Shown here: piece by piece, positions 8,862-39,420 of the stretch
How the letters are laid out: the number at the start of each line of letters is the position of its first letter
How positions within the stretch are numbered: position 1 is the first letter of the stretch
IMG/VR virus record: IMGVR_UViG_3300025582_000056
Location: 1-53,366 of that record
DNA: 53,366 bases
Direction: 5' to 3' (one strand)
From: a virus
Lineage: Duplodnaviria > Caudoviricetes
The notes under the pieces: generated by a model
Database searches by the model: none
Seen by the model: only the letters and a program-made list of their open reading frames with translations
What the model was told of the DNA's origin: nothing
Translations under genes and position numbers: made by a program

Positions 8862-9064
8862 CTGTTATTGTGTTTTTAATATTTCACATGATGCTTCTTG
8901 GTCATTCAAATTGATTAAACGTCATTACTACCACCTATTATGCATTTTGGAAACATACCAGAATATTATTCTCCCACTTGGTTTGTTACCCCAAACACAG
9001 TATTTACATTTATTCATAACCATGGTACTACTCATTGGCTAAACACTTATGCTATAATCAACTC

Positions 9065-9598: not shown

Positions 9599-9883
9599 TT
9601 GGTAACGCCTACGCTTCCTGGATTCAATGGCCAAGTGTCACAACTCATGGAGCTCTATTCCCCGACCCATTTCCTGGGACTACTGGCCTTCCTAATTCAA
9701 ATAGTTGGACTAGCACTAATGGTAATTGGGCAACTCCTTAGTAGCACCACTGACGGTGGAGTGCGTGCCTTTCGTCGTGGTGGCACTTGGTACGGTGGCG
9801 GCTATGCCGGGGTTCTGTCCCTGAATTTGGGCACTTTGCTCAGTGTTACGAGCCCGCTTCTCGGTTTCCGTGTCTCTCGGTGA
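9595..9883 (+). pseudogene. Frameshifted C-terminal fragment of a DGR target (CLec/FGE-type) with VR-like end
   Basis: VVGNAYASWIQWPSVTTHGALFPDPFPGTTGL..WTSTNG (frameshift ~9724) IGQLLS..FRRGG..GFRVSR aligns with the C-terminus of 24720-25985. Confidence 0.8.
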
Positions 9884-13445: not shown

Positions 13446-15533
13446 TTAAGGCAATGGGATTACGGCGACAGGAATCAAGCTATTGACAGTTGAGTTGTTG
13501 CCAAGTTGGCCGTTACCGTTCCACCCCCAACAGTAGGCTTGATTATCGGAGGCGATGGCACAGGTTGCAGGGCCAGCCGAAATAGATGTGATCATTTTAC
13601 CGCTTAGTGCCCCAGTATTAATAACAGTTACAGGTATGAAACTATTAGTAGTTGAATTGTTACCAAGTCCACCATAATAATTATATCCCCAACAGTAAGC
13701 ACCGCTGTCGAAAGTAATGACACAAGTAGTATAATGGTCAGCTACAACAGATTTAATCGTCTTGCCATTTAGAACGCCAGCAGCATAAACAGCAACAGGT
13801 ATGGAGCTCTGGCTATCCGAGTTATTGCCGAGCGAACCAGCATAGTTCAGCCCCCAGCAATAGACTTGGTTATCAGAGGCTATAGCGCAAATATGAGCAG
13901 CGCCGGCTGTGATAGCTTTTATGGTCTTGCCGCTCAGGACGCCGGCAGTATAAACAGCGACGGGCACTAAATCAGTATTAGTATGGTTATCACCGGATTG
14001 ACCAAAAGAGCCATCGCCCCAGCAATAAGCTTGATTATCGGAAGCAATAGCGCAAGTATTAGATCCAGCTGTGATAGCTTTTATGGTCTTGCCGCTCAGG
14101 ACGCCAGTAGTATTAACGGCGACAGGAACCATACTCTGGTTAGTTGAATTGTTGCCAAGTTGGCCAGAACTATTAAGCCCCCAACAGTAGACTTGGTCGT
14201 CAGAGGCAATAACACAGGTATGATTAGTGCCGACTGAAATTGATTTAACCGTCTTACCATTTAGGACACCATTAGTATAAACAGCAACAGGTATAGAACT
14301 ATTAGTAGTTGAGTTATTACCAAGTTCGCCGTCGCCATTATAGCCCCAACAATAAGCTTGATCATCAGAAGCAATGGCACAAGTAACCATATTACCGACT
14401 GAAATCTGCTTTATTGTCTTGCCACTCAGGACACCGGCGGTATAAACAGCAACAGGTATAGAACTATTAGTAGTTGAGTTATTACCAAGTTCGCCCTCGC
14501 CATTATGACCCCAACAATAGGCTTGGTTATCGGAGGCAACGGCACAGGTGCGAATACTATCACCCGTAATCTGAGTCCACGTCCTTACACGATAATAATT
14601 TGCTGACCCTGATTCGCTCCAAGTGCTAGTTGCATTAGTGTTATAACACTGGGCTTGGGCAGCCACTGTATATGTTTGCCCTCCAGTTGAAGTTGTAAAA
14701 GCAACCGAAAGATTAGTCCCATTTGCTACCCAACCAGAATCATAGCCTGATGGCGTAATAGTGTAACGGTATTGGTAACGAGCTGTATTGCCAGGACAAG
14801 ATGCCGCACCCCACGACCAAGTTGTTGTGGCACCCACTGTTGCAGCCGTAACGGTCGGAGCTACTGGTGCGTCAATGGTTGTAGTAGCTGTAGCTGTGGT
14901 TGACCAGTTGCTGGTTCCGTTGGCGTCAGTTGCTTGTACTCGATAATAATATGGAGTTCCTTGAGCTAAGCCACTTGATACAAATGTTGAGCCTGCTTGC
15001 GTAGCGATAGTTGTCGCACTCGTGAATGATGAATTGCTACCACGTTGTAGCGTATAGCTGGTTGCACCGGCAGATGCATTCCATGATACGTTAATCGAAG
15101 AACTGGATGCTGCTGTGGCGATTAGATTAGTTGGAATAGCAGTAGCTATAGAGATTGAACGAGAAGCACATGTACCTAGTTGAGCACCCTGGCTGCCAAT
15201 GTTTTGGTCAATGTAATAATGAATGGTAGCGTTTTGTGAGCTAGAGGCATCAATACAGTAGACTACACCGTCACTACTACCACCAGTTAAGATGGTGTTT
15301 TTACTTGGTTTGAAAGTTGTTAGATTGGAGACTAAGGTTGGATATGAGTTATTGAATGTACGAGCACTTTCCATAGCACTAGCTACACCATTGAGGTCAC
15401 TCTTTAGTTGAGCTGAAATGATTGAGTTTTGCCAGTTAGGATAACTAACGATGACAATGCTAGCTAGGATACCAATGACTGAGATGGCAACTATTAGCTC
15501 TACGAGGGTGAAGCCGGGTATTTTTCTTCTCAT
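13446..15533 (-). CDS. Prepilin-type adhesin with FN3 domains and RCC1-like beta-propeller repeats
   Basis: PG/FTLVELIVAI; FN3 motif GLAQGTPYYYRVQA; about 7 TCAIASDNQAYCWG.N..G.LG repeats; TGTTACAAT 7 nt before ATG 15533. Confidence 0.85.
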   Translation of the reverse strand: MRRKIPGFTLVELIVAISVIGILASIVIVSYPNWQNSIISAQLKSDLNGVASAMESARTFNNSYPTLVSNLTTFKPSKNTILTGGSSDGVVYCIDASSSQNATIHYYIDQNIGSQGAQLGTCASRSISIATAIPTNLIATAASSSSINVSWNASAGATSYTLQRGSNSSFTSATTIATQAGSTFVSSGLAQGTPYYYRVQATDANGTSNWSTTATATTTIDAPVAPTVTAATVGATTTWSWGAASCPGNTARYQYRYTITPSGYDSGWVANGTNLSVAFTTSTGGQTYTVAAQAQCYNTNATSTWSESGSANYYRVRTWTQITGDSIRTCAVASDNQAYCWGHNGEGELGNNSTTNSSIPVAVYTAGVLSGKTIKQISVGNMVTCAIASDDQAYCWGYNGDGELGNNSTTNSSIPVAVYTNGVLNGKTVKSISVGTNHTCVIASDDQVYCWGLNSSGQLGNNSTNQSMVPVAVNTTGVLSGKTIKAITAGSNTCAIASDNQAYCWGDGSFGQSGDNHTNTDLVPVAVYTAGVLSGKTIKAITAGAAHICAIASDNQVYCWGLNYAGSLGNNSDSQSSIPVAVYAAGVLNGKTIKSVVADHYTTCVITFDSGAYCWGYNYYGGLGNNSTTNSFIPVTVINTGALSGKMITSISAGPATCAIASDNQAYCWGWNGNGQLGNNSTVNSLIPVAVIPLP

Positions 15534-16222
15534 GAGTTTAATTGTAACACATATATCCATAAACATTATAATTAAACATTATAATTAATAGCAATATTTG
15601 CTCATTATGTTATGGACGCATACATATCTTTCTTCTTTATTACAATGAATGATTATTGTTAAGATTTACTCTTAGGAATGATTCAAAGAAGTTATTTGTC
15701 TTGTCATTAACTATGAATCTTTTTTCGATATTTGCTGGAATACTATTCACTTTATTTTGTTCGTTATATATTCCAATCATTATAAAATGATGGCATCGTA
15801 TGGTGTACTTGAATGAAAAACTACCTGGAACGCATCCACTAGACCCAGGCAAGCGTAAGTATTATTTAATAATTTCAAGAGGGGCTATGATTAGTGCATG
15901 GATATCAACGAACTCATTATTAATGTTATTTGCACAATTATAGGCGGTCTAATAGGTAGCGACATTACGATGAAAGCCATTTTCTCTCAAGCCAGAAACA
16001 GAAAGTTGGCCCATTCTGGTAGCGAAAAGATCAAATCATTCGCAACCATTATGCGAGACAATCAAAGAAGCGTAGCCCTGTGAGGCAGCCGGTTCTGAGC
16101 TGTGTCCAGATAGCAATAGCGACCAAAACTACTAACGCTATTTGATGATTATCATGCCTAATAGCCCTCCCCAAAGCGATTAGTGACCCATTCGCGTCCT
16201 GGATTATTGAGTCTTTGAGGCT

Positions 16223-17009: not shown

Positions 17010-20000
17010 TTAGGGTCGTGGGCCTCTTCCTGCTAGATATCTTATGTGGTCTATGTTATTACCAATGCCTTGTGCGATTTCAGGGCTATCCAATGCCTGA
17101 ATTGCAGAATCCCTCAGATTAGCAGGAATGGGGGCTCCTCCAAGGGAATTCAGAACATATCTTATCTCCTCATTTGAGGTAGTGGCAAGTCTGTTCGAAG
17201 AGTATCTATTAGCAATGGCACCTCGTCGTGCTATATCTTCTAGGTTTAATAAGTCACCAGTACCATTGACACGGTGACCTTCTTGAACGAATTGTATGTC
17301 GCCTGCTCCTATAAATGCAGGACGATTTTTTGATCCGCCAACAGTACTTGCTATTGTACGCATCATCTCGTCGCCGTGACGATCGTGTCTATCACCGTAA
17401 GTTGTAATCATATTATCCCATGCTGTTTGGAATTCAGCAAACTGTCCTCTTTCAAGTTGAGTATCCATCGCTGCTGCCTGTATTGACACATCTCTACCAT
17501 TGATACCTCTGACATTTCCACCATTAGAAATTGTATTAAGCTCAGCATTTGTTACATTTGCTTGTCGTAGTTGTGCCCGACCAGATTCAACGTTCTCCAT
17601 ATCAAGCTTATTTGCTAACTGTGCTGCTTGTTGAGCAGTACGGGTACCCATTGTTCCTGTAACTCTAGATGAGTTTAAGAAAGCGTTACGCCCACTTGCC
17701 AATCTTGTTAGTGGGTTTCTTCCTCTGTAAACACCACCTGTGATCTGAGCTCTTTTAATCTGCTGGTTTCTATCCCATGCCGTTTTGTATGCTCCGAGCA
17801 TTGATGTTTCTTTAACTTTACTGCCGATTCTTCCATTTGCCTTTGTACTAAGGCCAGCCAACTTCGTTCCTATACTACCAGCTGCACTCATAGAATTCTT
17901 TAATAAACTCGGTACCATAAACAACGGAACTATTGCGACGCCTATGGCGACTAATTGCATAACCTTATCTTCACCCGCACTAGCTTTGATAACAAAACCT
18001 GCTAGGCTACCAGCCCCAAATAATATAGAGATAATAGGAAAAACTAATAACAAATTAGCAAACATCTTGCCCCATTTTTTAAAATACTGTTCTGTATTTG
18101 GTAATAAATACGCAACAAAAGCTAGTGGCGATATAATGACCAACAGAACAATTAGTGCTGTACGGGCTATTAGTATCAATACGATCATTAGTAATGCTAA
18201 AAAAACGGATAATAATACAGGGACACTTATTGCGAATAATAACGTTACCCCACCTGCTAACCCCGCGGTAATTAATGCTGCTATACCAAAGCCATTTCCT
18301 GTTGCATTACCAGGTGAGAATACGTCAGGTGTTTGCATAAGCTGGCTAAGGCTACTGAAAAGACTTTTAAATGAATAACCTGAAATATTACTAAGGTCGA
18401 CTGCAATTTGGCATACAACGAAGGATAAGTTAACCAGGATGGCCGCAATGATTAACTTAGGAAACATTTTTTTGATGCCGTAGTTAGTTATGCCTATGCT
18501 AGTAATTTGAGAAAATATAATAATCAGGAACGCGATTACAAACGCAACGTTGGCGATATTACGCATTATTTGCCACGCATTGTATGTGGCAATGGTTCCA
18601 TTATTAGGATCAGTGTTTAATAAGCTAGTATTAGTACTTAGGAAACTGGAAGCAAGAAAATTAAATGCAACGTCCGAGATTTTTCCTAGAAATGTTAGTG
18701 TTGGACAGACAATCCATCCAATTCCTTCGACTGAGCATGAAGTAGTATTTAAAAGTGTAAAGAATTGGCTAGATTGGTCGGCGGGCACGGTTATCGTAAC
18801 GTTACTTTCTGTATTTACTTCTTTTGTAAAAGTCGAGCATAAGCTCGTATCACCAAGGCAGACTTTATAATCATTTGCTTTAGCTGATGGTTCAACTGAA
18901 TTAAAATTTGAATTTGGGCTAGTTGTTAGATTAAAATCTTCGCTGGCAGGTATATGAGCAGGATCTAGGGTTTGGGTACCAGTATTGGTTGTGTTTAATA
19001 TCGTGCCACTATCGGTATTCTTAAGGTTAATTATTATAGGGCCATAGGTTCCCGATTGGACACCACTGGGTATTTTAATATTAACAGTTACTTTGACGGT
19101 TTTACCTAATGAAAAAGAAACCGTATTCGGTGTTCCAAAAGTAACCACAAATAATGTGCCAAGAGTTTTAGTTATGGTTTGGCATTGATCAAAATCGAAT
19201 ATCGAAGATGGTGTGATACATACAGTATATTTACCCGGGTCAATGTTCTTAAAAAACGTCTGTCCTTCAACAGGGTCGCCAAGTAACGTTAAATCGCTAG
19301 ACATTGCCTTAGTTCCCGTACCACTTAAATTTAGTGGTGTTAGCGTAACTTTCATGCCACTTGGCAACTTATCAGAAGATACATTAGAATAGACTGCCAC
19401 CTCTATCTGACTTGTATTAATACTTTCTGGCTGATCACCTATTTGTGTTGTATCGCTAGTACTACCACCTATAGATATATTACTCTGGTTAAAATCCGAT
19501 ATATGGGAAGCAGTTTTTGCACTACATGCATCGATATGTGCCTGACCTTGGGCTCCGTAGGTAGGTTCGGGATTATTCAAACTCGCAGGAGTGGATATGG
19601 AACCAGTTGTACGATCGATCGGATTAACGTTAATTTGTACCCCTGCTGTACACGTAACTGTTTGGCTACCTATATTCAGGAAAGGGACCCAATTCCAAAA
19701 AGAATCATTGTATGTAACAGTTACCTTTGTAGATCCAGTGTATGTAATAGCTATCTTTGTAGGGCCAGTGGCGGTGTTTGAGCCGGTTGTTGTAAAGCTC
19801 AATTTTACGGTATTATCACCAAACTGACCACCAACTGCACCTATATCATTACCGCTATTGTAATATTTGTATGAAGGGACGGACGCTGCTTTAACTTGGG
19901 TGGTGAGTATTGCGGGTATTATTATAGGTGTTAATATTAAGAATAGTAGGCAGCTAATCGTAACCTTGAAAGGTATTCGCTTTGAGATGTTAGCATTTAG

Positions 20001-20012
20001 CCGATTTGACAT
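17010..20012 (-). CDS. Large TrbL/VirB6-like polytopic membrane protein (Saccharibacteria T4SS type)
   Basis: GIGWIVCP, AWQIMRNIAN, NYGIKKMFPKLIIAAILVNLSF..CQIAVDLSN, ISPLAFVAYLLPNT; TGCTATAAT 6 nt before ATG 20012. Confidence 0.75.
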   Translation of the reverse strand: MSNRLNANISKRIPFKVTISCLLFLILTPIIIPAILTTQVKAASVPSYKYYNSGNDIGAVGGQFGDNTVKLSFTTTGSNTATGPTKIAITYTGSTKVTVTYNDSFWNWVPFLNIGSQTVTCTAGVQINVNPIDRTTGSISTPASLNNPEPTYGAQGQAHIDACSAKTASHISDFNQSNISIGGSTSDTTQIGDQPESINTSQIEVAVYSNVSSDKLPSGMKVTLTPLNLSGTGTKAMSSDLTLLGDPVEGQTFFKNIDPGKYTVCITPSSIFDFDQCQTITKTLGTLFVVTFGTPNTVSFSLGKTVKVTVNIKIPSGVQSGTYGPIIINLKNTDSGTILNTTNTGTQTLDPAHIPASEDFNLTTSPNSNFNSVEPSAKANDYKVCLGDTSLCSTFTKEVNTESNVTITVPADQSSQFFTLLNTTSCSVEGIGWIVCPTLTFLGKISDVAFNFLASSFLSTNTSLLNTDPNNGTIATYNAWQIMRNIANVAFVIAFLIIIFSQITSIGITNYGIKKMFPKLIIAAILVNLSFVVCQIAVDLSNISGYSFKSLFSSLSQLMQTPDVFSPGNATGNGFGIAALITAGLAGGVTLLFAISVPVLLSVFLALLMIVLILIARTALIVLLVIISPLAFVAYLLPNTEQYFKKWGKMFANLLLVFPIISILFGAGSLAGFVIKASAGEDKVMQLVAIGVAIVPLFMVPSLLKNSMSAAGSIGTKLAGLSTKANGRIGSKVKETSMLGAYKTAWDRNQQIKRAQITGGVYRGRNPLTRLASGRNAFLNSSRVTGTMGTRTAQQAAQLANKLDMENVESGRAQLRQANVTNAELNTISNGGNVRGINGRDVSIQAAAMDTQLERGQFAEFQTAWDNMITTYGDRHDRHGDEMMRTIASTVGGSKNRPAFIGAGDIQFVQEGHRVNGTGDLLNLEDIARRGAIANRYSSNRLATTSNEEIRYVLNSLGGAPIPANLRDSAIQALDSPEIAQGIGNNIDHIRYLAGRGPRP

Positions 20013-20068
20013 ATGGAAATTATAGCACAATCACCTGTTTAGATTAATAGGCTAAATAAAAACGAAAA

Positions 20069-21109
20069 CTATCTTTGCCCGATCGAGATATAATTAAAAT
20101 TATTCGCACTATTAGCCGCTTCAGATATTGGCTGTTTTATAATCGACAACTGTATGTCATTAAAAACTTCTCTTTTGTGCGAAACATTTTTACCGTCATA
20201 TTGGTCTACGTTTATTGTTAGTTTCACCCCACCAGCTTGAAGTGATGATAATTTTTGACCATTAAAGTTGATAGTCTCAACGGCCCCTAACACATCAGGG
20301 AAGGCAGTAATACTGTTATCTCCACTTTTGGTTGAGCCATTTGCTACGCTATAATTAGCGGCACTTCCATACTTTGAGACTACAGATTTTGCGGTTGCCA
20401 TTAATTTATTGATCGCATCATTATCGGCCGTAAATTCTATAGGCAAACCTTTATTATCTGTGTCTGAGCAATAATTACGAAACTGTTCGTCGATAATGGC
20501 TACAGCGTTTGGTAAAGGATTTTTAGACAACAAATTCATATAAAGATTTAAATTTTTTACCGCATATTCATTGAATACTTTTATAACGGTTTCTTGATTA
20601 TCTTTCTCGGCTGCTGGTAGTTTATAGCGAGTAAATCCAAGGTCGCTCTCTTCTCCCTTGGAATAAGTTAAAGATTTGTAATTCTCTATATACACATCGC
20701 TAATAGGCAAGCCCTGTTTATTGTGTGCATTCTCATATGCCGTCTCAGCATAATAAGTTGAAACGGGATCGGCGTACCTACCGCCTACTTCACTAACAAA
20801 TTGCTTTGCTTCATTGGGTATTGCAGGCAGTTTTTGTGTTTCATTGCCCGGATTAAGGGTATCCGTTACGGCAGCTTTGTTAGTTGGTAAGATAGCTTTA
20901 TCTGACTTATCATTGAGTAAATTCTCAACACCGATGGTAGCTAGGATTGATAACGTTGCTACAGCAGCAATAATCTTTGTCTGTTTACTGTGTAGCCAAT
21001 TTTTATTTTCAGGTGGCATAGATGAAGATTCTCCTCCTTTTAAAGTGGATTCTTTATTTGGCCCATTAAAGATATTGTCTTGGGTGGGATGGTGCAGGTC
21101 TACTGACAT
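20069..21109 (-). CDS. Hypothetical membrane-anchored extracellular protein
   Basis: 346-aa ORF with one N-proximal hydrophobic segment; no recognised family. Confidence 0.6.
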   Translation of the reverse strand: MSVDLHHPTQDNIFNGPNKESTLKGGESSSMPPENKNWLHSKQTKIIAAVATLSILATIGVENLLNDKSDKAILPTNKAAVTDTLNPGNETQKLPAIPNEAKQFVSEVGGRYADPVSTYYAETAYENAHNKQGLPISDVYIENYKSLTYSKGEESDLGFTRYKLPAAEKDNQETVIKVFNEYAVKNLNLYMNLLSKNPLPNAVAIIDEQFRNYCSDTDNKGLPIEFTADNDAINKLMATAKSVVSKYGSAANYSVANGSTKSGDNSITAFPDVLGAVETINFNGQKLSSLQAGGVKLTINVDQYDGKNVSHKREVFNDIQLSIIKQPISEAANSANNFNYISIGQR

Positions 21110-21424
21110 AGATTATATTTCCTTGTATGCTTATATGGTTACATGAAACTACTACTGACACCATCTATACACTAATTGTCAAAAAAAGGCAATAGTCCGT
21201 AATAACTCACCACCTTTGCAAACAACTAAAAAGATTGGCCCTTACACTAGTAATTAAAACAACAACTAATATGAAGGGAGCCTATCTATGGCCTATTCTA
21301 TTAACACTAACCTAGTTGTGGTCAGAAAATCTTTAGAGTATAATTCGCAGCGTTGCCAAGTAAATTTTGGAATTGAAGTCATCCCCCTATTTGTTCTTTA
21401 CTTTTTCAACTCATCTCCTGTAAT

Positions 21425-21640
21425 CTATTGAGGAAATATATCCCTTTTAAAGTCGTTCGGATTCTTTTCCAAAATGGCACATATTGCAAGAAATTCATTA
21501 GCACGAAGTGGTCTTACTAATTTATTCAATGACCTATCAAGTGTATATTCCGAAATATCGGTGTTTCTGGAAAGCTCTTTTATTGGGATACCTTTTTGTT
21601 TAATGTAATTCGCTACCATTTCGGTTGTGAAAGTTAGCAT
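21425..21640 (-). CDS. Cro-like small HTH regulator
   Basis: IKQKGIPIKELSRNTDIS..TL XRE-like pattern; divergent from the XRE gene. Confidence 0.7.
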   Translation of the reverse strand: MLTFTTEMVANYIKQKGIPIKELSRNTDISEYTLDRSLNKLVRPLRANEFLAICAILEKNPNDFKRDIFPQ

Positions 21641-21800
21641 ATGTGCACCCCCAATTCAAACCTTCATTTTGAAGACATTTATAGTATAATCTTAGCTTTG
21701 AAGACTGTCAACAGCTTTTATTTCTTAAAAATGAAGAATTTTGCATTGACCGTCTTCAAATATCGAATTATAATAATATCGAAGTTAAGGGGGATGACCA

Positions 21801-22175
21801 ATGAAATCAAAGGAAGAAATAGCAAAGGTTCTGAAAGAATCCAGACAAAAAACCGGGTTATCTGCAAAAGAAGTCATCGAGAAACTAAGCCTGCATGACA
21901 TAAAGGTCAGCCCCAAAACACTGTACGGTTGGGAAAGCGGACATAGTCAACCAGATGCCGATACGCTTTTGCTTCTTTGTGATATATATGGAATTGATGA
22001 TATAATGCTTGCCTTTGGCTACATTAGAACTGAGCAACAACCGATCGATACTAAAACGCCCGAAAAAGCCCAACTTTTGAATAAAGTGGAACAATTGGGT
22101 GAAAACAACTGCAAGGTGGTTTCTGCTTATATTGACGGGTTATTAACCAAGCAAGGGAGCCATTCCCGTGGTTGA
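21801..22175 (+). CDS. XRE-family (CI-like) repressor
   Basis: LKESRQKTGLS...KTLYGWESGHSQPD...LCDIYG; AAGGGGG RBS. Confidence 0.85.
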   Translation: MKSKEEIAKVLKESRQKTGLSAKEVIEKLSLHDIKVSPKTLYGWESGHSQPDADTLLLLCDIYGIDDIMLAFGYIRTEQQPIDTKTPEKAQLLNKVEQLGENNCKVVSAYIDGLLTKQGSHSRG

Positions 22176-22256
22176 TAACACGCTCATTTCATTCTCGTGC
22201 GACTTGCCTGCATATTATTTAAGACCTATCTTATAATTAGGACACTTTTCAGAAAC

Positions 22257-22302
22257 AAAAACAGCTACGAAATGTATCTTTTACACTTCGTAGCTGTTTT
22301 TT
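22257..22302. terminator. Bidirectional intrinsic terminator
   Basis: AAAAACAGCTACGAA...TTCGTAGCTGTTTTTT between convergent ORFs. Confidence 0.75.
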
Positions 22303-22321
22303 CAATTAGTATATTTAATTT

Positions 22322-22550
22322 CTACTTCCAACGCCAAGCAATACCTGAATGAAGTCCACCATAGAGTTGAATAAACTCTTTCTGGATACTACCATCTTCA
22401 CTTATCTCCAAGCGATTTTCATCCACCGGCTCACCCGGACGCTCAATCCGTGAAAGCTTGTCATACGCCCAAATTATAGTCGGCTTCTCCCCTTTGAAGA
22501 CGACTTTCTGCCTGTAAGTCAACGTCGGGGTTTCAAACGATTGCCCTGTG
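22322..22550 (-). pseudogene. C-terminal gene fragment, paralog of 26104-26440
   Basis: SFETPTLTYRQKVVFKGEKPTIIWAY...GGLHSGIAWRW vs SFAIPTFTYNQEIVFIGQKPRVIWSY...GGMFSGVAWEW; no credible start. Confidence 0.65.
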
Positions 22551-22676
22551 TCACATTGCTGACGAGTTCCAGGCGAGACAGAAAGACATCTTTCTAGTTA
22601 TCACACCAGATAAGTTGGAGAGGCTGATCACTAATCACTCTATTTAGATATTTGTTTAAGCTTAGTATCACAATCT

Positions 22677-22709
22677 AAAAAGGCCGTACGCGACTTAACC
22701 GTACAGCCT
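22677..22709 (-). terminator. Intrinsic terminator downstream of TR
   Basis: Minus strand AGGCTGTACG-GTTAAGTCG-CGTACGGCCT-TTTT; the stem is complete (one G-U pair) only on the minus strand. Confidence 0.65.
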
Positions 22710-22827
22710 GAGTCGTATTCGTCTCACTATCCAAAGATAGTAAAGACTGGTTATAAGTGATCGGATACTAATCGGCACAGATCTATCAATAATTAAATTA
22801 ATAGATATCGGGCCACTTTTCATTATC

Positions 22828-22954
22828 CCGGGAGACACGGAATCCGATGTTGCTGTTCGTGTTGCTGGGGCCATTGTTCAAATTCAACGTCAGAACGCCG
22901 TCGTTGCCGCCATTGTTCCAATTCCCGCCGCGGATGAAGCCATACAAGCCCGTC
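22828..22954 (-). repeat. DGR template repeat (TR)
   Basis: 127 bp ungapped match to 24723-24849; 16 mismatches all at TR adenines; 30 adenines, 10 AAY codons. Confidence 0.97.
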
Positions 22955-22975
22955 TATAATCACATAACCATAAGT

Positions 22976-22983
22976 ATTATACT
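22976..22983. promoter_or_regulatory. Overlapping divergent -10 elements (TATACT plus strand, TATAAT minus strand)
   Basis: ATTATACT; plus-strand element is 7 nt before RT GTG, minus-strand element is 21 nt before TR. Confidence 0.55.
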
Positions 22984-22990
22984 ATAGGCA

Positions 22991-24106
22991 GTGATTAAAC
23001 TAAAAGATATATTCAGTTCAGTTACCTCACTGGACACGCTGTTAATAGCACATAGACGAGCGTTAAAAGGCAAACGTTATAATTACTATGCGACTGGCTT
23101 TGATTATAACCTCATCAGCCACTTAATTAAATTACAAGCCGAATTACGTGATCATGAATATAACCCAGGCGGTTATCGTAAAAAGATCATAGTCGAGCCA
23201 AAGGTTCGATGCATCGAAGCCCCAGCCTATCGAGATCGCATAGTCCATCATGCCTTGCATTATTTTTTAAATCCATTTTACGAGCGATTTTTCATTAGCG
23301 ATTCATACGCTTGTCGACAGGGTCGTGGTATACATCATGCGACCGCCAGGGTGCAACAATTCCTTCGCCACGGAGGATCAGATCTATACGTTTGTCAAAT
23401 CGACGTATCCAAATATTATGCATCTGTTAACCATAATCGCCTAATAGAGTTGCTCCAAGGAAAAATCGACGATAAACCATTAATGGAACTGTTATGTAAA
23501 ATAATCGAATCAACCGACAGCGGTACCGAACATGATTCATTATTCGCCCCGGATTCACATTATTTCACCAAGGGTCGTCGAGGCATCCCGATTGGTAATC
23601 TGACATCTCAGTTATTCGCCAATATTTATCTGCACGAAGCTGATATGTACGCCAAACAAACCCTTAAAATTCGTCATTACGTTCGGTATATGGATGACAT
23701 ACTCTTTTTTCATCACGACAAAACTCAGTTGCACGAGTGGAAACAGAGTATGCAAAATTTTCTTTACGATAATCTATATCTAACCATTAACCCGCACAAG
23801 ATCAGACTGTACCCTGCCAAACAAGGTGTTTCATTCGTTGGTTATGTTATATACCCATATTACCTGCGTTTACGTGGTAGCAGCGTTCGACGTTTTCAAA
23901 AACGTTATCGCAAACAGTTACAGGCTTTGTCGTCATGGAAAATTGATATCGACGTCGTAGACAAATCATTCGCATCATGGAAAGCCCACGCATCACACGC
24001 CAGCAGTAAACACCTGATCGAAAGAATGGAAATATTACAAAAAGATTGCCTGGCAAACAGACGGCCAATTCAAATGTCGCTCTTTGAATTATTTGGTGAT
24101 TTATAA
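22991..24106 (+). CDS. DGR reverse transcriptase
   Basis: RDRIVHHAL, QIDVSKYY, GIPIGNLTSQLFANIYL, YVRYMDD, FVGY; adjacent to TR and avd. Confidence 0.95.
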   Translation: MIKLKDIFSSVTSLDTLLIAHRRALKGKRYNYYATGFDYNLISHLIKLQAELRDHEYNPGGYRKKIIVEPKVRCIEAPAYRDRIVHHALHYFLNPFYERFFISDSYACRQGRGIHHATARVQQFLRHGGSDLYVCQIDVSKYYASVNHNRLIELLQGKIDDKPLMELLCKIIESTDSGTEHDSLFAPDSHYFTKGRRGIPIGNLTSQLFANIYLHEADMYAKQTLKIRHYVRYMDDILFFHHDKTQLHEWKQSMQNFLYDNLYLTINPHKIRLYPAKQGVSFVGYVIYPYYLRLRGSSVRRFQKRYRKQLQALSSWKIDIDVVDKSFASWKAHASHASSKHLIERMEILQKDCLANRRPIQMSLFELFGDL

Positions 24107-24450
24107 CGCTTGGCCCAACCGCCACGCATTTTACCAACTTCATCAATTTGAGATATGGCATAGCCTAGAGATTCGGATTTGAGGAAATGCAACTCATACG
24201 CAACCCTCAGCAAACTGCGTAATACCTCCAATTCAACATTCAGTTGATCTAGACTTTTAAGTGTACCCCCCCCCCCCAGCTTGACATTAGCGTTATTTGC
24301 TTGGATAATATATCGCAAACTTAACAATGCACTATTTTCAATTTGCTGCCCCAACACAAAACGCTGCTTTTTGGGAAAAGTGTTTACTTTTTCAAACAAC
24401 CACAAAACCACTTCGAGCATTTTGGTATAGATGATAAATTCTTTTTTCGT
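24070..24450 (-). CDS. avd: DGR accessory variability determinant (Avd, four-helix bundle)
   Basis: IYTKM..WL...NTFPKKQRFVLGQQI...L..LNVELEVLRSLLR...IDEVGKMRGGW; first ATG at 24420 but frame and RBS extend to ACG at 24450. Confidence 0.9.
   Translation of the reverse strand, partial: TKKEFIIYTKMLEVVLWLFEKVNTFPKKQRFVLGQQIENSALLSLRYIIQANNANVKLGGGGTLKSLDQLNVELEVLRSLLRVAYELHFLKSESLGYAISQIDEVGKMRGGWAKRYKSPNNSKSDI
24266..24277 (-). repeat. G12 homopolymer inside avd
   Basis: 12 consecutive C on the + strand, encoding L-G-G-G-G in frame. Confidence 0.85.
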
Positions 24451-24470
24451 AATATCTCCTTTTTTATTAA

Positions 24471-24631
24471 CTCGACTTACGCAAAACCTCGCACTCTTCT
24501 GGCGATACTAGTACCAGTTCAGAATACATTTTCTCTGGTGGAGATGATCCCGTAGGATCATCAACAACAGAAAAATGGTTTATGGACGGTGATAGTGCGT
24601 CAGAGGGTGTAGGGATTTTGCGTAAGTCGAG
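24471..24631. mobile_element. 161-bp MITE-like element
   Basis: Perfect 16-bp terminal inverted repeat CTCGACTTACGCAAAA / TTTTGCGTAAGTCGAG, with TAA on both sides. Confidence 0.7.
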
Positions 24632-24639
24632 TAAATCGC

Positions 24640-24658
24640 AGGGCGGACAAGCCGCCCT
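24640..24658 (-). promoter_or_regulatory. GC-rich hairpin downstream of VR (candidate retrohoming cruciform)
   Basis: AGGGCGG-ACAAG-CCGCCCT about 60 nt beyond the target stop codon. Confidence 0.55.
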
Positions 24659-24719
24659 AAATCTCAAGACTAAAGACCATAAGAGTCAAGAGTCCAAGAG
24701 TTAAGAGCTAAGGTCTGTA

Positions 24720-25985
24720 TCACCGGGAGACACGGAATCCGACGGCGCTGCTCGTGTTGCTGGGGCCATAGGGCAAATTCAACGCCAGAACGCCGCCGCC
24801 GCCGCCACTGCTCCAAAGCCCGCCGCGGAGGAAGCCATACAAGCCCGTCGTGTCATTATTACTATAAATCTGTCCTATACCTTTACCACTATTCCAAGTA
24901 CTAGAAGCACTAGCTCCGGATAAACCAGTACCGGTAGGAGATGGGTTGATCGGTAGAGTGCCATTTGCCGTTATTGATGTCCATTCACGCCAGCCCCAAC
25001 CAGCACCTGAGACACCAGGTTGACCACCAGCGACAGTCCCAGATGTCCATTGCCAGACGTTACCAGCAAAGTCCCAAATGGTCTCGTTGTTTGTTAGTTT
25101 TAGGGTTCGTCTTTGGTTCCCACCAGTATTAGTTTCACCAGCATAGCCGTTGGCATCGTTTGAATCAGGGGCAAGAGCGCCAGTTGGAGTATTGTCGTTG
25201 TGTCCTGAATAGATATAATTTGTGCCAACAGTGCCACCATACCAGTTACTGCCTACAGATAAGACGTTTTGGGCAATCGTCATCCATTCAGCCTCGGTAA
25301 TTAAGTGACAACCTGTGCAGCCAGCTACGTTGGGGCTATTGGCTATGGCAGTGGTTTGGGAGATGCTAACCCAAGGCAGAACGCTTGGTACGGATATTGG
25401 GACGTTGGTTGTTCCTACTTGACTGGCAGCATACTTCATAGTACAGAAACCAGCTTGACCGTATGTAGCGGATCCAGGTACTGGTATAAAGTTAGTTGGA
25501 CAATTGGTCGGTTGAGCTAGAGCTACTGGGGAAGAATTATCGTTAATACCATAGGCTGTGCCGTTGGTGTTGGTGTCAGTTAATGCAAAAGTTGTACCAC
25601 CATTGGTAGTATAAATTAATGTATTACTGCTACTTGATTTGAGACAATAGGTATTATCTACATTGGGAAGTGTAGGGCAGTTACTACCATTCATAGTAAT
25701 TGGATAAGAGCCATATAGCTGGTTATACATTTTTAGTTGTGTAGATGCAGTGGTTAGATCAGATTGTAGTACGGAGGCAGTAGCACGAGAGGTTATGCCT
25801 AGGTAGGATACTATCGTTATGGTTGCTAGGATGGCTATTACTACTATGACTACGAGGAGTTCGACGATGGTAAAGGCGGGGGAAGAAGTTACTTGATGGC
25901 CCGACTGCCGGTGCCGGTTCGGAAAAATATTATCTAATCTTCTTAGTGCTTTATCGGATATTTGTGTTGAAATATACTTAGTCAT
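24720..25985 (-). CDS. DGR target: prepilin-headed protein with FGE-sulfatase-type CLec domain
   Basis: PA/FTIVELLVVIVVI; HLITEAEW, IWDFAGNVWQW, RGG...GFRVSR; contains the VR. Confidence 0.92.
   Translation of the reverse strand: MTKYISTQISDKALRRLDNIFPNRHRQSGHQVTSSPAFTIVELLVVIVVIAILATITIVSYLGITSRATASVLQSDLTTASTQLKMYNQLYGSYPITMNGSNCPTLPNVDNTYCLKSSSSNTLIYTTNGGTTFALTDTNTNGTAYGINDNSSPVALAQPTNCPTNFIPVPGSATYGQAGFCTMKYAASQVGTTNVPISVPSVLPWVSISQTTAIANSPNVAGCTGCHLITEAEWMTIAQNVLSVGSNWYGGTVGTNYIYSGHNDNTPTGALAPDSNDANGYAGETNTGGNQRRTLKLTNNETIWDFAGNVWQWTSGTVAGGQPGVSGAGWGWREWTSITANGTLPINPSPTGTGLSGASASSTWNSGKGIGQIYSNNDTTGLYGFLRGGLWSSGGGGGVLALNLPYGPSNTSSAVGFRVSR
24723..24849 (-). repeat. DGR variable repeat (VR)
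   Basis: Last 42 codons of the target; 12 amino-acid differences from TR, all explained by adenine substitutions. Confidence 0.97.
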
Positions 25986-26103
25986 AGATAAAGAGTACGC
26001 TTTCTAAATATTATATAATCCATATTATGGATTGTATCATGAGCGGGATAAATTTTACAAGGTTATTACTTTCAACTGCCAGACAAATATTAACTTTTAG
26101 ATA

Positions 26104-26440
26104 TCACCACTCCCAAGCCACTCCTGAAAACATCCCACCGTGTAAATGCGTAAATGATATTTGTATTGTACTTCCACCATCCTTGAACGCGAGTGGTTTT
26201 TGTTCTTCCTGTCTGCCTGGGCGCTCCAACAACGAAAGCATATTATATGACCAGATAACTCTAGGCTTCTGTCCGATAAATACAATTTCTTGGTTGTATG
26301 TAAAAGTTGGAATTGCAAACGAACGTGTTATTTCTATTGCGATAGCTTTTTTACCATTCTTACCTTGTTCCGGCGACAACTCTATAAAGCTTATCTTGTG
26401 CGTTTGCCCACGTTTGAGCGGTTTGGGAAAGCTTTTGCAT
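26104..26440 (-). pseudogene. 5'-truncated gene fragment, paralog of 22322-22550
   Basis: Frame extends upstream (FPKPLKRGQTHKISFIEL) without a start or RBS. Confidence 0.55.
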
Positions 26441-26471
26441 CTTCGGTTTCTATTCGATCTGTAAGGGCACT

Positions 26472-29400
26472 TTACTCTTCTGAATTCGAATCGGCTAGCA
26501 TAGTCTCGGAAATGTTAGCTTTTTCAAGATACACGTTTGCCATGTCATTATCGTCAATGCTCCGATATGCTGAGGCAAGATTTTTGTATATTGACAGATT
26601 TTTGGGGTGGTTTTCAGGGAATTTCAAAAGGCGGATGTTCAACGCCTTTTGGTAAAACTCTATAGCCGCGTCATACTGTCCCTTTCCAAGGTATACGTCA
26701 GCAAAGTTGCAATATGAAGTGGCAATATGCGGATGAGAATCGTCAAATTTCTTCCGGCGGATATCAAACGCCATATTGAAATAAACCATCGCCTCGTCAA
26801 AATCACCTTTATCTCTGTAAACGTATCCCTTGTTATCATAGGAAGCAGTGGATGAAGGCAATCCCGCCCTACCATTTTGCCTGTAAATTTCAATTGCCTT
26901 ATCTATCCAAACCAAGGCGTCATCAAATTGCTTTTTCTTCCGGCAGACGCTGCACAGCCCCCTGTAGATGGCGGCGGTTCTCGGCTTGTTTTCCATGTTC
27001 AGATTCACCCTTATCTGCAGTGCCTTTTGATAATATTCCAAGGTGACGTCAAGCTCGTTTTTCGACTGATAGACGCTGCCGATGTTGTAATAGGCGATTG
27101 ACATTGATGAATGGTTTGCCGGCAGGACTTCCTTTTTGATTTTCAAAGATCTAAAATAATAATCCAGCGCATTGTCAAAATATCCTTTAGTTGAGTATAT
27201 CCATGCGATGTTATGCAAAGACTGGGCGATAGATCTGTGGTTAGGAGGCAGTGACAGTTGTCTGAACTCAAGCGACTTTAAAAAATTGGGCAAAGAATTG
27301 TCATATTCACCAAGCGCGTTATAATACATCCCTAAGTAATTATATGTTAGAGCAAGGTCGGAGAGTTTCTCCGGAAAATGTTCCTGCTGCACCTTAAGCG
27401 CAGCTAGGTGATATTTAAGCGCATCTGGATAGGAGGCTAACTTTCTACTGGAAGAGCCTAGTAAATTCAAGGTGCGGGCGAGATTGCGATAATCGGGATT
27501 CTCCGCTTTTTCAAAGAGATTTAGCGCTTTTAGGTAACACTCCATCGCTTTTTTGTTGTCGGCCAATTCCGAATAACTAAGACCGATGTGCCTGTGCAGT
27601 CTGGCTAGTTCGTTTTGATCGCTGAGGTTTTCCGGATTTTCCTTTTCGTAAATAGAGAGCGCTTCCAGCAGGCATTCCTGCGATTCATAAAACATCGCAA
27701 GCAGTCTGTAGATTCTTCCAAAGTTATATAGGATTCTACCGGTCAGCAATACCTTGTCGGGAATCCTTTTCAGGACACTTGTGCACAGTCTGATGGCCTG
27801 ATTGAGTGTAATCCAGTCATTGCCTTCATCCAGTGGTGACAAATATCCGTTTAGCGACGTCAGATATTGTTCGCAACTCACACTGTTCGGTTTCAAAGCG
27901 TTTGCAAGGACATCCGAAACGACCGGGTGCAATGAAGCGACGTCGGTTTTTCGGTCGAGGATGATCCAGCCGGTGCCCACCAGCGCATCAAAGTCATTAA
28001 AATCGTCAAGACGAATCCAGTCGCCAAAGGTCTCAGCCTTGATGCCGTCATGCGGAGTCAATGACATATTCATGAGGATATATTTTTCTCTTTCGGATAG
28101 CTGGGAGATGTCAAAGATCGATTCAATGTGTGCATACATCAGGGCGGAGTGGATTTCGCCATCCTTTTCAAGGGTGACATACGCGGGGATGTCCGTTTTT
28201 AGATTCGCCGTGAGCTTATCCAGCAGTGTTTTTGGAGACACCCTCCTGCCGGTGAACAGCGTCTTGGCGATGAGCACGAGCGTGAGGGTGTGGCCGCTGA
28301 TGATATCGAGTATCCCGGCGATCGCCCGCTGATCGTCTTCGGACATTTCTTTTGTGTAATACTTAAAGAAAAGCTCATTCTGATATACGCCTTCAAGCTC
28401 GCCCAATTCGAGACAGCCGTCATGGATGACCCGCGAAGTAAAGATGATGTGATACTTGCCCGACCGCACGTCGCCGAATTTCTTATCAAAAACAGCACTC
28501 ACATACTTCCCCGAATCATCTTTTGTGCGGTTGAAGTTATCGATAACGATCAAAGTATCTTCGTTGTAAGTTTTCAGGAGTTTCATCTTTGCGTTATAAT
28601 GAAATTCCAAGTTTTCATCCTCAGCCTCATAATTGAGGACAGGCAAGGAAAGGCCGATTGTTGAAAGAAGTGAGCCGTCGTAGCTTAAAAAGCATACGGT
28701 GTTATACTTTTCCTTGTTTCTGTGGATGTATTCCTTCACAAGCTCCGTTTTTCCGATCCCGCCCATACCGGAGACCATCGCCCAACCGGATTTTTGCAGC
28801 CGATCGCCGATTTCCCTAATCTTATCCTCCCGGTCTGTAAAGGTTTCCAGTGCGGACGGCACGCTGTATATGAGGCACATCTGCAGCCCGTTGGAATTTT
28901 GCAAAGCCTCCAGGTTTTCCCTCATTAGTCGGTTTGTCTCGTCGAGTTTGCCGGTAATGGTAGGGCCGGCGGGCTGGGTAATCTCCAGCAGGGTTTGCAG
29001 ATCATTCTGCAGCTCCCGAATATCTTGGTAGCGGCTCGATGTGGCAGCCCGTAGGGTTTTGGAAAATATTTTTTTGACGAGTGCTCCACTCTCGCCGGTC
29101 AATATCGAAGTATGGATGGAACTGTCCATCAAATGGAGCTTATTTCGCTGAATGGCATATAGATCGGCCTCGTTCAGTATCTTACCAGTAATAAGCCAGA
29201 ACAGCACCGCCCCCATCGCATAGATGTCGGTAGTCTTGCTGAAAGATCTCGTAAGCCATTGCTCCTGTTCCGGCGGAGCCCAGCCCTCGGAATTCACTCT
29301 ATAAGGGATTTTCTTTTCAAGAATGTCATCCAGCAGCATAACCGTATCGAAGTCGAATAAAGCGACACGGCGTGTTTCGCCTGCGTCTTTTTTGAATAAA

Positions 29401-29969
29401 AAGATGTTTTCAGGTTTTATGTCGAGATACAGATAGATGCCGTCCTTATGCTCGTGGAACGGCCTGACAGCGTTGCACAAGGACAGTATGATCTGAGCAA
29501 TTTCAAAAACACCTGAGACATCGTCCCGGATATTGTCGAGCGAATCGCCGTTGGTTGGCTCCAAAACGGTATAAACGGTGTTGTTGGCCTCGCTGCATGT
29601 CGGGCGGGGCAGCATGTGGTTCGTGTCGTTTTCATAGAAGGCAACATGGTTGAGATATCCGTTCAGAAAATGGCTTCTGAGGCTTTCGAAGCTTTTCTGG
29701 GCATCCATGCCGTCAACAAACAAGTGTACGCCGTCACGACGGATTTTTCGGGTTAGAGAACAGGGATAGAATTCCTTGATAATGGCTACACGGCAAAGCT
29801 GCCGACTCCCGCCGCAGAAGGCGGCCTCCGGCCTCTCGGCCCTATAGACGATGCAGCTGCCGCCGTACCCGATCACGCGTCTGATGGTGTATGTGATAGC
29901 CTGCCCGTCTACAATGAATTCCAGTTGTTCGCCTTCCGCAAGAGGAATCCTCTTTTCTTCTGCCACCAT
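26472..29969 (-). CDS. Ser/Thr kinase-like + STAND/NB-ARC-like NTPase + TPR repeat protein
   Basis: IGYGGSCIVY, IIKE, YLDIKPEN, LFDFD; GMGGIGKTEL and LIVIDN; about 10 C-terminal TPRs. Confidence 0.85.
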   Translation of the reverse strand: MVAEEKRIPLAEGEQLEFIVDGQAITYTIRRVIGYGGSCIVYRAERPEAAFCGGSRQLCRVAIIKEFYPCSLTRKIRRDGVHLFVDGMDAQKSFESLRSHFLNGYLNHVAFYENDTNHMLPRPTCSEANNTVYTVLEPTNGDSLDNIRDDVSGVFEIAQIILSLCNAVRPFHEHKDGIYLYLDIKPENIFLFKKDAGETRRVALFDFDTVMLLDDILEKKIPYRVNSEGWAPPEQEQWLTRSFSKTTDIYAMGAVLFWLITGKILNEADLYAIQRNKLHLMDSSIHTSILTGESGALVKKIFSKTLRAATSSRYQDIRELQNDLQTLLEITQPAGPTITGKLDETNRLMRENLEALQNSNGLQMCLIYSVPSALETFTDREDKIREIGDRLQKSGWAMVSGMGGIGKTELVKEYIHRNKEKYNTVCFLSYDGSLLSTIGLSLPVLNYEAEDENLEFHYNAKMKLLKTYNEDTLIVIDNFNRTKDDSGKYVSAVFDKKFGDVRSGKYHIIFTSRVIHDGCLELGELEGVYQNELFFKYYTKEMSEDDQRAIAGILDIISGHTLTLVLIAKTLFTGRRVSPKTLLDKLTANLKTDIPAYVTLEKDGEIHSALMYAHIESIFDISQLSEREKYILMNMSLTPHDGIKAETFGDWIRLDDFNDFDALVGTGWIILDRKTDVASLHPVVSDVLANALKPNSVSCEQYLTSLNGYLSPLDEGNDWITLNQAIRLCTSVLKRIPDKVLLTGRILYNFGRIYRLLAMFYESQECLLEALSIYEKENPENLSDQNELARLHRHIGLSYSELADNKKAMECYLKALNLFEKAENPDYRNLARTLNLLGSSSRKLASYPDALKYHLAALKVQQEHFPEKLSDLALTYNYLGMYYNALGEYDNSLPNFLKSLEFRQLSLPPNHRSIAQSLHNIAWIYSTKGYFDNALDYYFRSLKIKKEVLPANHSSMSIAYYNIGSVYQSKNELDVTLEYYQKALQIRVNLNMENKPRTAAIYRGLCSVCRKKKQFDDALVWIDKAIEIYRQNGRAGLPSSTASYDNKGYVYRDKGDFDEAMVYFNMAFDIRRKKFDDSHPHIATSYCNFADVYLGKGQYDAAIEFYQKALNIRLLKFPENHPKNLSIYKNLASAYRSIDDNDMANVYLEKANISETMLADSNSEE

Positions 29970-36174: not shown

Positions 36175-36312
36175 TGCAAGGAATCCCAGCCAAAAGGACT
36201 CATCATCCGCATACTGGAATTCGCTGGCCCTTTTACCCTGAGTGCTTTTCCCCTGCGGCTCGGAGTGTGCAATTATGGAAAAACAACAACTAGCAAGAAA
36301 GGAGCGGGCACT

Positions 36313-38595: not shown

Positions 38596-39420
38596 ATGCC
38601 TGAGAGAGTATCGCTCAAAAAACTGGAGGAGCTGGAGCCTAGCTTAAGCGATCGGGACAAAAACGTCTTGAGATCTATTCAGGCGTACCGCTATCTCACG
38701 ACTTCGCAAATCCAAAGACTGCATGTTATCGATGCGGCAACCCCCAGTTCAGCCCTCAGAGCTACGAGCCGAAACTTGAAAAAACTCAAAGAGCTTCATC
38801 TGATCGACACCCTTGCCCGTCGAATCGGCGGAGTATATTCCGGATCAGGTTCCTCTGTGTGGCATTTGGATGCCGCCGGTGAGCATCTCCTCCGCTTGAC
38901 TGATAATAAAGCTCGCCAACATAAAGCAAGCTTTGAACCCTCCGCCTACTTTTTGACACATACACTGTCGGTATCTGAATGCGTTGTCCGACTCACCGAA
39001 GTATGCCGCAAAAAAGGCATGCATCTAACAGAAGCACAGAATGAGCCGTATTGTTGGCGTCCCTACAACAGTGCTGGAAAGATTATATCCTTAAAACCAG
39101 ATCTGTTTGCCATTACCCTGTGCGATAAGTATGAGGATCGCTGGTTCTTTGAGATTGACCTTGCCACCGAGTCGCCCGTCAAGGTCATCGAGAAGTGCCA
39201 TCGCTATCATCAGTATTATCGAAGTGGCTCGGAGCAGGAGCAGTACGGGGTGTTCCCGCTGGTGGTCTGGATCGTACCGGACGCCGCTAGAAAAAGCAGC
39301 GTAGAAATGCGAATCAAGGCGGAGTTTTTAAAGCTGCCAAACATCTTTGTTGTTATTACACCCGATGAGCTGGAGCCTTTGGTTAAAAAGGGCGCGGGCG
39401 ACTCTGAAGGAGGCCATTAA
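38596..39420 (+). CDS. Replication-relaxation family protein
   Basis: LTTSQIQRLH, RRIGG..SGS, HTLSV, KPD...FEIDLATES, GVFPLVVW. Confidence 0.85.
   Translation: MPERVSLKKLEELEPSLSDRDKNVLRSIQAYRYLTTSQIQRLHVIDAATPSSALRATSRNLKKLKELHLIDTLARRIGGVYSGSGSSVWHLDAAGEHLLRLTDNKARQHKASFEPSAYFLTHTLSVSECVVRLTEVCRKKGMHLTEAQNEPYCWRPYNSAGKIISLKPDLFAITLCDKYEDRWFFEIDLATESPVKVIEKCHRYHQYYRSGSEQEQYGVFPLVVWIVPDAARKSSVEMRIKAEFLKLPNIFVVITPDELEPLVKKGAGDSEGGH

Follow-up and report, generated by a model that had tools for sequence, protein, structure and literature searches.

The diversity-generating retroelement (DGR) of Bordetella phage BPP-1, with the gene order mtd-avd-TR-brt, is the prototype of these systems. In the account of Wu et al. 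2018 (PMC5758913), it couples a reverse transcriptase (RT) plus the accessory variability determinant (Avd) to two repeats, the template repeat (TR) and the variable repeat (VR), which differ only at template adenines. The VR forms the 3' end of the gene of a protein with a C-type lectin (CLec) fold, the two repeats share a GC-rich end of the initiation of mutagenic homing (IMH) type, and a structured spacer RNA lies 3' of the TR. All of these traits recur at a locus of IMG/VR record IMGVR_UViG_3300025582_000056, whose 53,366 nucleotides, taken as a whole, are referred to below as the window. This locus very probably constitutes a complete DGR of a Saccharibacteria-type lineage, carried by an island that resembles a conjugative element. 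DGRs are a known kind of system; the class of target found here, a predicted pilin-lectin fusion, and the RNA and acceptor elements that accompany it are little described.

Cellular DGRs have been reported from the small-genome, probably episymbiotic bacteria of the candidate phyla radiation (CPR, or Patescibacteria), where they form the "CPR set" of Wu et al. and clade 2 of Roux et al. 2021 (PMC8144416), and the locus described here resembles them in this respect. In Bacteroides, DGRs located on conjugative-type islands (integrative and conjugative elements, ICEs) and accompanied by an Avd-like protein rewrite the CLec head of a pilus-associated adhesin, according to a preprint (bioRxiv 10.1101/2024.11.15.621889), again much as is proposed below. 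PMC11661182 mentions one pilin-type target, a rare "GspG-type pilin" domain in which a VR lies. By what means Saccharibacteria and other ultrasmall episymbiotic bacteria recognise their host cells and switch between them is an open question, for which type IV pili and a modular minor pilin have already been implicated in the host binding of the cultivated strain TM7x (ISME J 2025, PMC12206443). As presented there, PilX1 and PilX2 of TM7x combine a prepilin leader and a lollipop-shaped pilin module with an extra C-terminal binding domain, an architecture similar to that of the target considered here, and PilX2, with its beta-propeller, contributes to host binding.

Repeat pair and cassette layout

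Between positions 21500 and 27500, a repeat search returns one long direct repeat of 127 nt, the copies of which (TR and VR, Table 1) are 87% identical and lose their homology abruptly on either side. Read on the minus strand, they align without gaps and display 16 mismatches, every one of which is an A in the TR; with a TR composition of A30 C34 G38 T25, the hypergeometric probability of such a distribution is 1.8e-12. The mismatches all fall on codon positions 1 or 2 (16/16), and the target differs from the TR-encoded sequence at 12 residues (386, 390, 392, 393, 396, 397, 401, 405, 406, 412, 414 and 415). The reading frame of the TR is rich in Asn (…GGNWNNGGNDG…LNLNNGPSNTNSNIG…), as that of a DGR template should be. 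The VR ends 3 nt ahead of the stop codon of the target gene and makes up the 3' end of its open reading frame (ORF), and the 20-mer shared by the 3' ends of the two repeats has only two exact occurrences in the window, at 22828 and 24723. The sequence-only reading had proposed a complete DGR with a gapless TR/VR alignment over 127 bp, mismatches at 16 of the 30 TR adenines, 12 changed residues and no non-adenine difference. The repeat search, the minus-strand alignment and a scripted count all agree with that description, and each component (TR, VR, RT, bAvd and target) is present and intact. Such a strictly adenine-only pattern would fit recent retrohoming or recent acquisition of the element.

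Table 1. Coordinates of the DGR components and of candidate regulatory elements in the window
Feature	Positions	Strand	Description
Terminator-like hairpin and T5	22677-22708	-	Stem of 9-10 bp with a conserved loop; the proposed TR-spacer RNA would end (3') here
Structured spacer (Sp)-like RNA	22709-22827	-	Directly 3' of TR; conserved motifs GTGCC, AGTATCCG, CCAGTCT, GACGAATA
Template repeat (TR)	22828-22954	-	127 nt, 30 A, 16 mismatched in VR; codons form an Asn-rich TGLYGFIRGGNWNNGGNDG... template
IMH*-like TR 3' end	22828-22847	-	20 nt (TCGG...CCCGG) identical to VR 3' end
GTATAAT/GTATACT box	22976-22982	-	21-23 nt upstream of TR; candidate -10 element of TR RNA
Reverse transcriptase gene	22991-24106	+	371 aa; Pfam RVT_1, E 7.3e-22; strand opposite to TR, avd and target
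Accessory variability determinant bAvd	24070-24420	-	116 aa; Pfam PF22296, 69.7 bits, cut-off 40
GC-rich hairpin	24641-24657	-	7-bp stem, 5-nt loop; 63 nt downstream of target stop codon
AGACCTTAG then short-period CTT array (~7-8 nt)	24660-24719	-	Just downstream of VR and stop codon; candidate VR-specific cis element
Variable repeat (VR)	24723-24849	-	Encodes target residues 380-421, the last 42
Target gene	24720-25985	-	421 aa; prepilin-type leader (A/FTIVELLVV...), pilin alpha1 helix and beta head, CLec/FGE-type domain
Promoter-like site	26031-26060	-	TTGTAA, 18 nt, TG-TACAAT; upstream of target gene; consensus scan only, candidate

The RT possesses the motifs YMDD at residue 233 and IGNLTSQ at residue 201, the latter of the form [ILV]GxxxSQ, which we take to be a mark of DGR RTs, and shares 49-59% identity with the RTs of Saccharimonadia DGRs. 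The bAvd, well above its Pfam cut-off, scores 78.8 bits against the NCBIfam model DivGenRetAVD (NF033474), just under the cut-off of 80. The avd and RT genes are convergent and overlap by 37 nt at their 3' ends, and the RT start codon is 36 nt away from the 5' end of the TR. The opposite orientation of the RT gene with respect to TR, avd and target is a point absent from the sequence-only reading. Adenine mutagenesis is defined on the TR RNA, and the positions that vary here read A on the minus strand; the template RNA must therefore be a minus-strand transcript of its own, diverging from that of the RT gene.

Upstream of its ATG, the Avd frame remains open for 11 more codons (24421-24453, minus strand), up to an ATT preceded by AAGGAG, and the homologue in the related locus L001 begins with the matching MKQDFIIYTK; the true start of Avd may be non-canonical. 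The cassette is flanked by two small ORFs of the same orientation, 22322-22522 and 26104-26379 (both minus strand), which are paralogues of each other (47% identity, E 1e-22) and match no Pfam family. Neither was found in the loci of six relatives, and because of this absence they are not counted among the DGR parts; they may be the trace of a cassette insertion.

A scan of both strands of the 53-kb contig with the TR stripped of its A positions finds only the VR and one decayed copy, at 9754-9880 (plus strand) within the frame 9020-9883. This third copy matches 70 of the 97 non-A positions of the TR and 9 of the 30 A positions, retains the AGACCTTAGCTCT flank, and ends a frame broken by an in-frame TAG (9596-9598), whose likeness to the target is limited to its last ~52 residues. 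These features suggest a VR cassette, fossil or orphan, that sits behind an unrelated ORF of pilin-like type.

Target protein and its variability

The sequence-only reading had described the target as a prepilin leader fused to a CLec domain, and independent methods converge on the same architecture. The N-terminus contains the motif A|FTIVELLVVIVVIAILATI, which has the [G/A]|F-x-x-x-E form of a cleavage and methylation site ahead of a hydrophobic helix, and scores 18.9 bits against the prepilin-type domain TIGR02532 (cut-off 16.3). Such a leader motif is the signature of prepilin peptidase substrates. Among 70 homologues, F+1, T+2 and E+5 are invariant (70/70), and position -1 is G in 50 and A in 20. 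An AlphaFold2 model built on these 70 homologues (mean predicted local distance difference test (pLDDT) 87.2, predicted TM-score (pTM) 0.84) starts with a disordered leader, continues with a 52-residue helix (residues 40-91) and a beta head of small size (104-148), as in the lollipop fold of type IV pilins, and closes with a large C-terminal domain, the helix and the strands of the head having mostly block-mean pLDDT values of 90 or more. A Foldseek search of the Protein Data Bank (PDB) with this model returns as top match TaqVP (5vf4), the DGR variable protein of Thermus aquaticus (E 1.3e-8, probability 1.0), at a sequence identity of 16-17% and a TM-score of 0.40-0.43 over the whole chain, followed by formylglycine-generating enzymes (FGE) and then by variants of BPP-1 Mtd. 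The type IV pilin PilA4 of Thermus thermophilus (6xxd_A) is also matched, over 117 columns with an rmsd of 3.3 A and a TM-score of 0.59 normalised to the target.

At least 1,581 relatives of the target are found at E <= 0.001 among 8,000 candidates scored, many of them named prepilin-type proteins and one labelled Candidatus Saccharibacteria. Across the 70 homologues, the mean entropy reaches 2.65 bits at the 19 VR positions with an A at TR codon position 1 or 2, versus 0.68 bits at the other 23 VR positions and 1.10 bits over residues 37-379. The closest homologue (P0002), which comes from another sample and is 90% identical, differs at 42 residues, distributed as 14 of the 42 VR residues (13 of them A-templated) versus 28 of 379 elsewhere. 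The leader motif and the predicted fold together suggest a pilus-displayed adhesin, and the model is most likely that of a modular minor pilin with a re-programmable ligand-binding face.

Candidate RNA and acceptor elements

On its own strand, the TR is followed by ~150 nt of conserved RNA structure, terminator included. This corresponds to the spacer region that reportedly plays a role in the BPP-1 system. In an alignment of the spacer from the window and eight related loci (9 sequences, 8 distinct rows), RNAalifold predicts 41 pairs, 23 of which exhibit compensatory changes. The paired fraction of spacer cells in the 8 distinct rows is 90.7%, versus 34-47% when the partners are slid by 1-3 columns, and the 23 double-change pairs compare with 4-9 in the slid controls; none of 500 shuffles reaches the observed values. 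Helix 8, which is the terminator-like hairpin, has changes on both sides in 8 of its 10 pairs and 98.8% of its cells paired. Its end coincides exactly with position 22677, the left limit that the sequence-only reading had drawn. A generic terminator scan missed this hairpin, the loop of which is longer than the scan permits. No Rfam family matches the TR-spacer RNA in a search of 21000-27000 at E up to 1.

Two further pairing schemes were rejected. The long-range TR-spacer and leader-spacer pairs obtained by RNAalifold on the full-length alignment involve mostly invariant columns with little covariation, and a pairing of the leader GGTTAT with the spacer ATAACC fails in both L001 and L006, as judged by eye. 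Upstream of the TR, the GTATAAT/GTATACT box is present in 7 of 8 loci, at a constant distance from the TR and at a varying distance from the RT start codon, and is a candidate -10 element. The region upstream of the target gene contains no poly-G promoter switch.

The sequences downstream of the two repeats are unlike each other: the TR is followed by the structured spacer, and the VR by AGACCTTAG, the CTT array and the GC-rich hairpin, neither of the latter two being found downstream of the TR. An alignment of the acceptor side of eight sequences (the window, the six relatives L001 and L033-L037, and the decayed copy), all of which have AGACCTTAG and, after it, CTT recurring at intervals of about 8 nt, contains invariant T columns at an 8-column spacing, and Tandem Repeats Finder (TRF) reports AAGAGTC x3.7 at 24681-24707. 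The CTT array and the hairpin are candidates for a signal distinguishing acceptor from donor; the hairpin taken singly is a candidate terminator or DGR cis element.

Related loci

When one genome per species was scanned, a single close relative of this RT emerged, in a metagenome-assembled genome of Candidatus Saccharibacteria (L001, 58% identity). Its ORF map has the same layout as the window, with the TR on the opposite strand just upstream of the RT. The VR of L001 (~2995-3000) is broken by NN and shortened in the public assembly, which might reflect the behaviour of an assembler at a hypervariable site.

Of 401 genomes searched within the class of L001, 40 yielded matches to the RT (E <= 1e-40). 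Among the 31 loci examined, a TR/VR pair with adenine bias was detected in 23 and none in the remaining 8, the adenine share of the mismatches being for instance 9/9, 12/12 or 20/21. The TR lies on the opposite strand, directly upstream of the RT, in 7 of the 23 (L004-L009 and L011), whose RTs are 50-59% identical to that of the window; as L008/L009 and L006/L007 are near-duplicates, the independent cases are fewer than seven. In the other 16, TR and RT share one strand and the RTs are 33-43% identical. The inverted layout is thus that of every pair detected among the 10 fetched loci with an RT 48-59% identical to that of the window, L010 and L012 yielding no pair and L001 being assigned by eye. 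In each of six extended loci searched by tblastn with the window proteins, the parts again follow one another as TR, RT, convergent avd and target (6/6).

Six of the 8 clade members, namely the window, L001 and L034-L037, possess the pilin leader [GA]FTIVE. A regular-expression search for the same motif in 14 same-strand loci retrieves it in none of 18 VR-bearing frames, one of which is cut at its 5' end; one further same-strand locus has no open frame for the motif test. The pilin-type target therefore goes with the clade of inverted RT. In the two remaining clade members, the same DGR-diversified CLec domain follows collagen-like Gly-X-Y repeats (L033, genome G345) or a plain hydrophobic anchor (L038, genome G049), N-termini that show, at the level of sequence, a target undergoing module swapping. 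For 5 of 6 fetched relatives the same cassette resides on Saccharimonadia contigs of 155 kb to 900 kb; the contig of L001 measures 5.8 kb. The source of the window is probably an uncultured Saccharibacteria-type bacterium.

Genomic context

The window encodes several proteins typical of conjugative or integrative elements: a VirD4-like coupling protein of type IV secretion systems (T4SS; 36265-38472), a Replic_Relax protein (38596-39420) and two serine recombinases (43216-46144). Restriction-modification genes of lower G+C occupy 2814-7466, and the contig also contains MT-A70 methylase and amidoligase genes. The coupling protein and a 1006-aa membrane protein have homologues at 26-49% identity in each of the 5 Saccharimonadia genomes tested. 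Judged by the similarity of these genes, the contig most likely represents an island or plasmid of conjugative type from a Saccharibacteria-type bacterium.

The 1006-aa protein (17010-20030, minus strand) is polytopic and has no Pfam, PHROG or NCBIfam match; its own homologues are 36-49% identical in 5/5 Saccharimonadia genomes, and in L034, L037 and L038 weak matches are located at 2-3 kb from the DGR. Our impression is that it resembles VirB6/TrbL. Two other genes code for proteins with a prepilin leader: 10535-12433 (minus strand), with a Flg_new_2 repeat and a FISUMP (Fib_succ_major) domain, and 13446-15566 (minus strand), with fn3 and an RCC1 propeller of seven repeats that calls to mind PilX2 of TM7x, which also bears a propeller (PMC12206443). 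Directly beside the DGR target, 26472-29969 (minus strand) encodes a 1165-aa protein with protein kinase, ATPase (STAND-like) and TPR regions.

Proposed mechanism and alternative explanations

The steps that may be proposed for this DGR rest on the established biology of the BPP-1 element. The template RNA would be a minus-strand unit of its own of ~290 nt, starting just after the GTATAAT box and running through the TR and a ~120-nt spacer to end at 22677; its structure and conservation are computed, and its transcription is presumed. The RT gene would be transcribed divergently from the plus strand. RT and bAvd would then bind the template RNA in trans and copy the TR into cDNA, misincorporating opposite template adenines. 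At the 3' end of the target gene, the VR would be replaced by this cDNA, with homing directed by the 20-nt GC-rich end common to both repeats and probably also by the VR-specific downstream sequences (CTT array and GC hairpin). Change would be confined, in keeping with the observed pattern, to residues with A-containing template codons, up to 19 positions among the last 42. According to the computed fold and motif, the CLec/FGE-type domain that contains these residues is joined to a type IV pilin module, and the re-programmable face could plausibly let an epibiotic cell attach to its host bacterium or to a different surface.

Several observations weigh against the picture of a Saccharibacteria-type DGR that is active and diversifies a pilus adhesin. 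For the TR RNA, strand, ends and promoter are deduced, and a generic sigma-70 promoter scan returns 8 promoter-like sites versus 10.4 expected from shuffles. The taxonomic assignment is made by similarity alone, and the record is filed as a virus. The target stays below the Pfam gathering scores of N_methyl (18.5, with 21.2 needed) and FGE-sulfatase (18.6, with 23.3 needed), its predicted leader of 37 residues is long and has Ala rather than Gly at -1, and the window ORFs scanned include none recognised as a gene for pilus assembly or for a prepilin peptidase. Finally, sequencing runs X1 and X2, which may be the source of the window and in each of which the locus is almost complete, both provide a single contig across the VR with 0 differences, contigs being assemblies that drop minor variants.

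The last point would agree with a DGR that is real and silent at present, its VR being frozen from past retrohoming through recent transfer or tight repression, a reading that is unlikely and yet has to be taken seriously. The decayed copy, in which 27 of the 97 non-A positions have changed, indicates that such copies do fossilise on the element, and Wu et al. caution in their text (PMC5758913) that many genomic DGRs are inactivated. However, the contigs of X1 and X2, blind as they are to minor variants, are no test of activity. Furthermore, the reading frames of RT, Avd and target are intact, neither a non-A difference nor an indel separates TR from VR, and the spacer RNA and the elements flanking the VR are conserved. 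The differences of homologue P0002 fit diversification since the strains split, and fall short of proof for present activity. From these traits we infer that the DGR may well be active today. A third run, X3, contains a related strain, not the same one, and low-depth contigs of X1 and X2 covering the TR were discarded as other loci with unlike flanks.

The features of the N-terminus bear on a second alternative, in which the target is no pilus subunit and its pilin-like N-terminus is an uncleaved membrane anchor for a variable surface lectin. The lack of recognised assembly genes, the long leader and the Ala at -1 leave room for it, and therefore the target might remain a membrane-anchored receptor. 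The same CLec domain is linked to the other N-termini described above in two clade relatives, and most cellular targets are membrane-anchored according to the main text of Roux et al. 2021 (PMC8144416). This reading is nevertheless rather improbable: F+1, T+2 and E+5 are invariant throughout the 70 homologues, where position -1 is only G or A, the model associates a pilin-type alpha1 helix with a beta head matching PilA4, and the contig encodes two other modular proteins with prepilin leaders.

That the element belongs to a phage, with the target as its receptor-binding protein, is highly improbable, even if DGRs occur commonly in phages, the record is classed as viral and one ORF (51931-52704) has matches to endolysin families. 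Among 20 proteins compared with PHROGs and 27 with Pfam, none was recognised as a member of a capsid, portal, terminase or tail family. The contig bears instead the coupling protein, the Replic_Relax protein and the two serine recombinases, an RT scan of IMG/VR contigs gave 13 pattern matches, none of them a relative, and the same cassette occurs in Saccharimonadia genome contigs. A chance or recombinational duplicate arising with no reverse transcription, for which nothing speaks but the existence of a repeat, is rejected as virtually inconceivable, given the restriction of all mismatches to A, the RT and Avd genes between the copies and the recurrence of the pattern in relatives.

Comparison with known systems

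Full-text literature searches found no DGR-diversified type IV pilin in Saccharibacteria, and earlier survey tables (e.g., Paul et al. 2017) may list one. In the available text of the TM7x study (PMC12206443), the words lectin, retroelement and hypervariable have 0 occurrences, as do pilin, pili and pilus in the main text of Roux et al. 2021 (PMC8144416). The pilin-lectin fusion family, with more than 1,500 database relatives and a binding face written by a retroelement, offers a concrete and testable way for attachment specificity to change rapidly. This lineage is also a natural case of template RNA and RT as separate divergent genes, useful for delimiting the minimal cis elements of DGR RNAs and acceptor sites. 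A broader proposal, quite doubtful for now, is that a single Saccharibacteria DGR lineage has been reorganised as a whole, with an autonomous template-spacer small-RNA gene equipped with promoter box and terminator, a CTT array replacing the cruciform as acceptor mark, and a re-programmable type IV pilus adhesin that sets the host cells of the epibiont. If so, an element on a conjugative-type island would move an evolvable host range between epibionts.

Compared with BPP-1, the RT gene is here inverted with respect to TR, avd and target, and TR and spacer constitute a separate unit bounded by a terminator. The target is a cellular pilin-like protein instead of a phage tail fibre, and a CTT array lies downstream of the VR where BPP-1 has an adjacent cruciform. 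With TaqVP (5vf4) and the other FGE-type CLec variable proteins, the target shares an FGE-sulfatase-like fold with a C-terminal VR. To our knowledge, TaqVP has no prepilin-type N-terminal module.

The Bacteroides DGRs, as presented in the preprint cited above, act on the tip of a type V pilus assembled from a lipoprotein by strand exchange, whereas the signature here is a type IV class III signal peptide, and the phylum and the orientation of the cassette also differ. Their activity and surface display were established by experiment, whereas the present locus is known from its sequence and a predicted model. Within the CPR set, the arrangement TR-(avd)-RT (B3) dominates according to the text of Wu et al. 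(PMC5758913), in contrast to the order target-avd-(RT)-TR observed here. The pilins of TM7x (PMC12206443) are static, whereas the target described here would have its binding face written by a retroelement.

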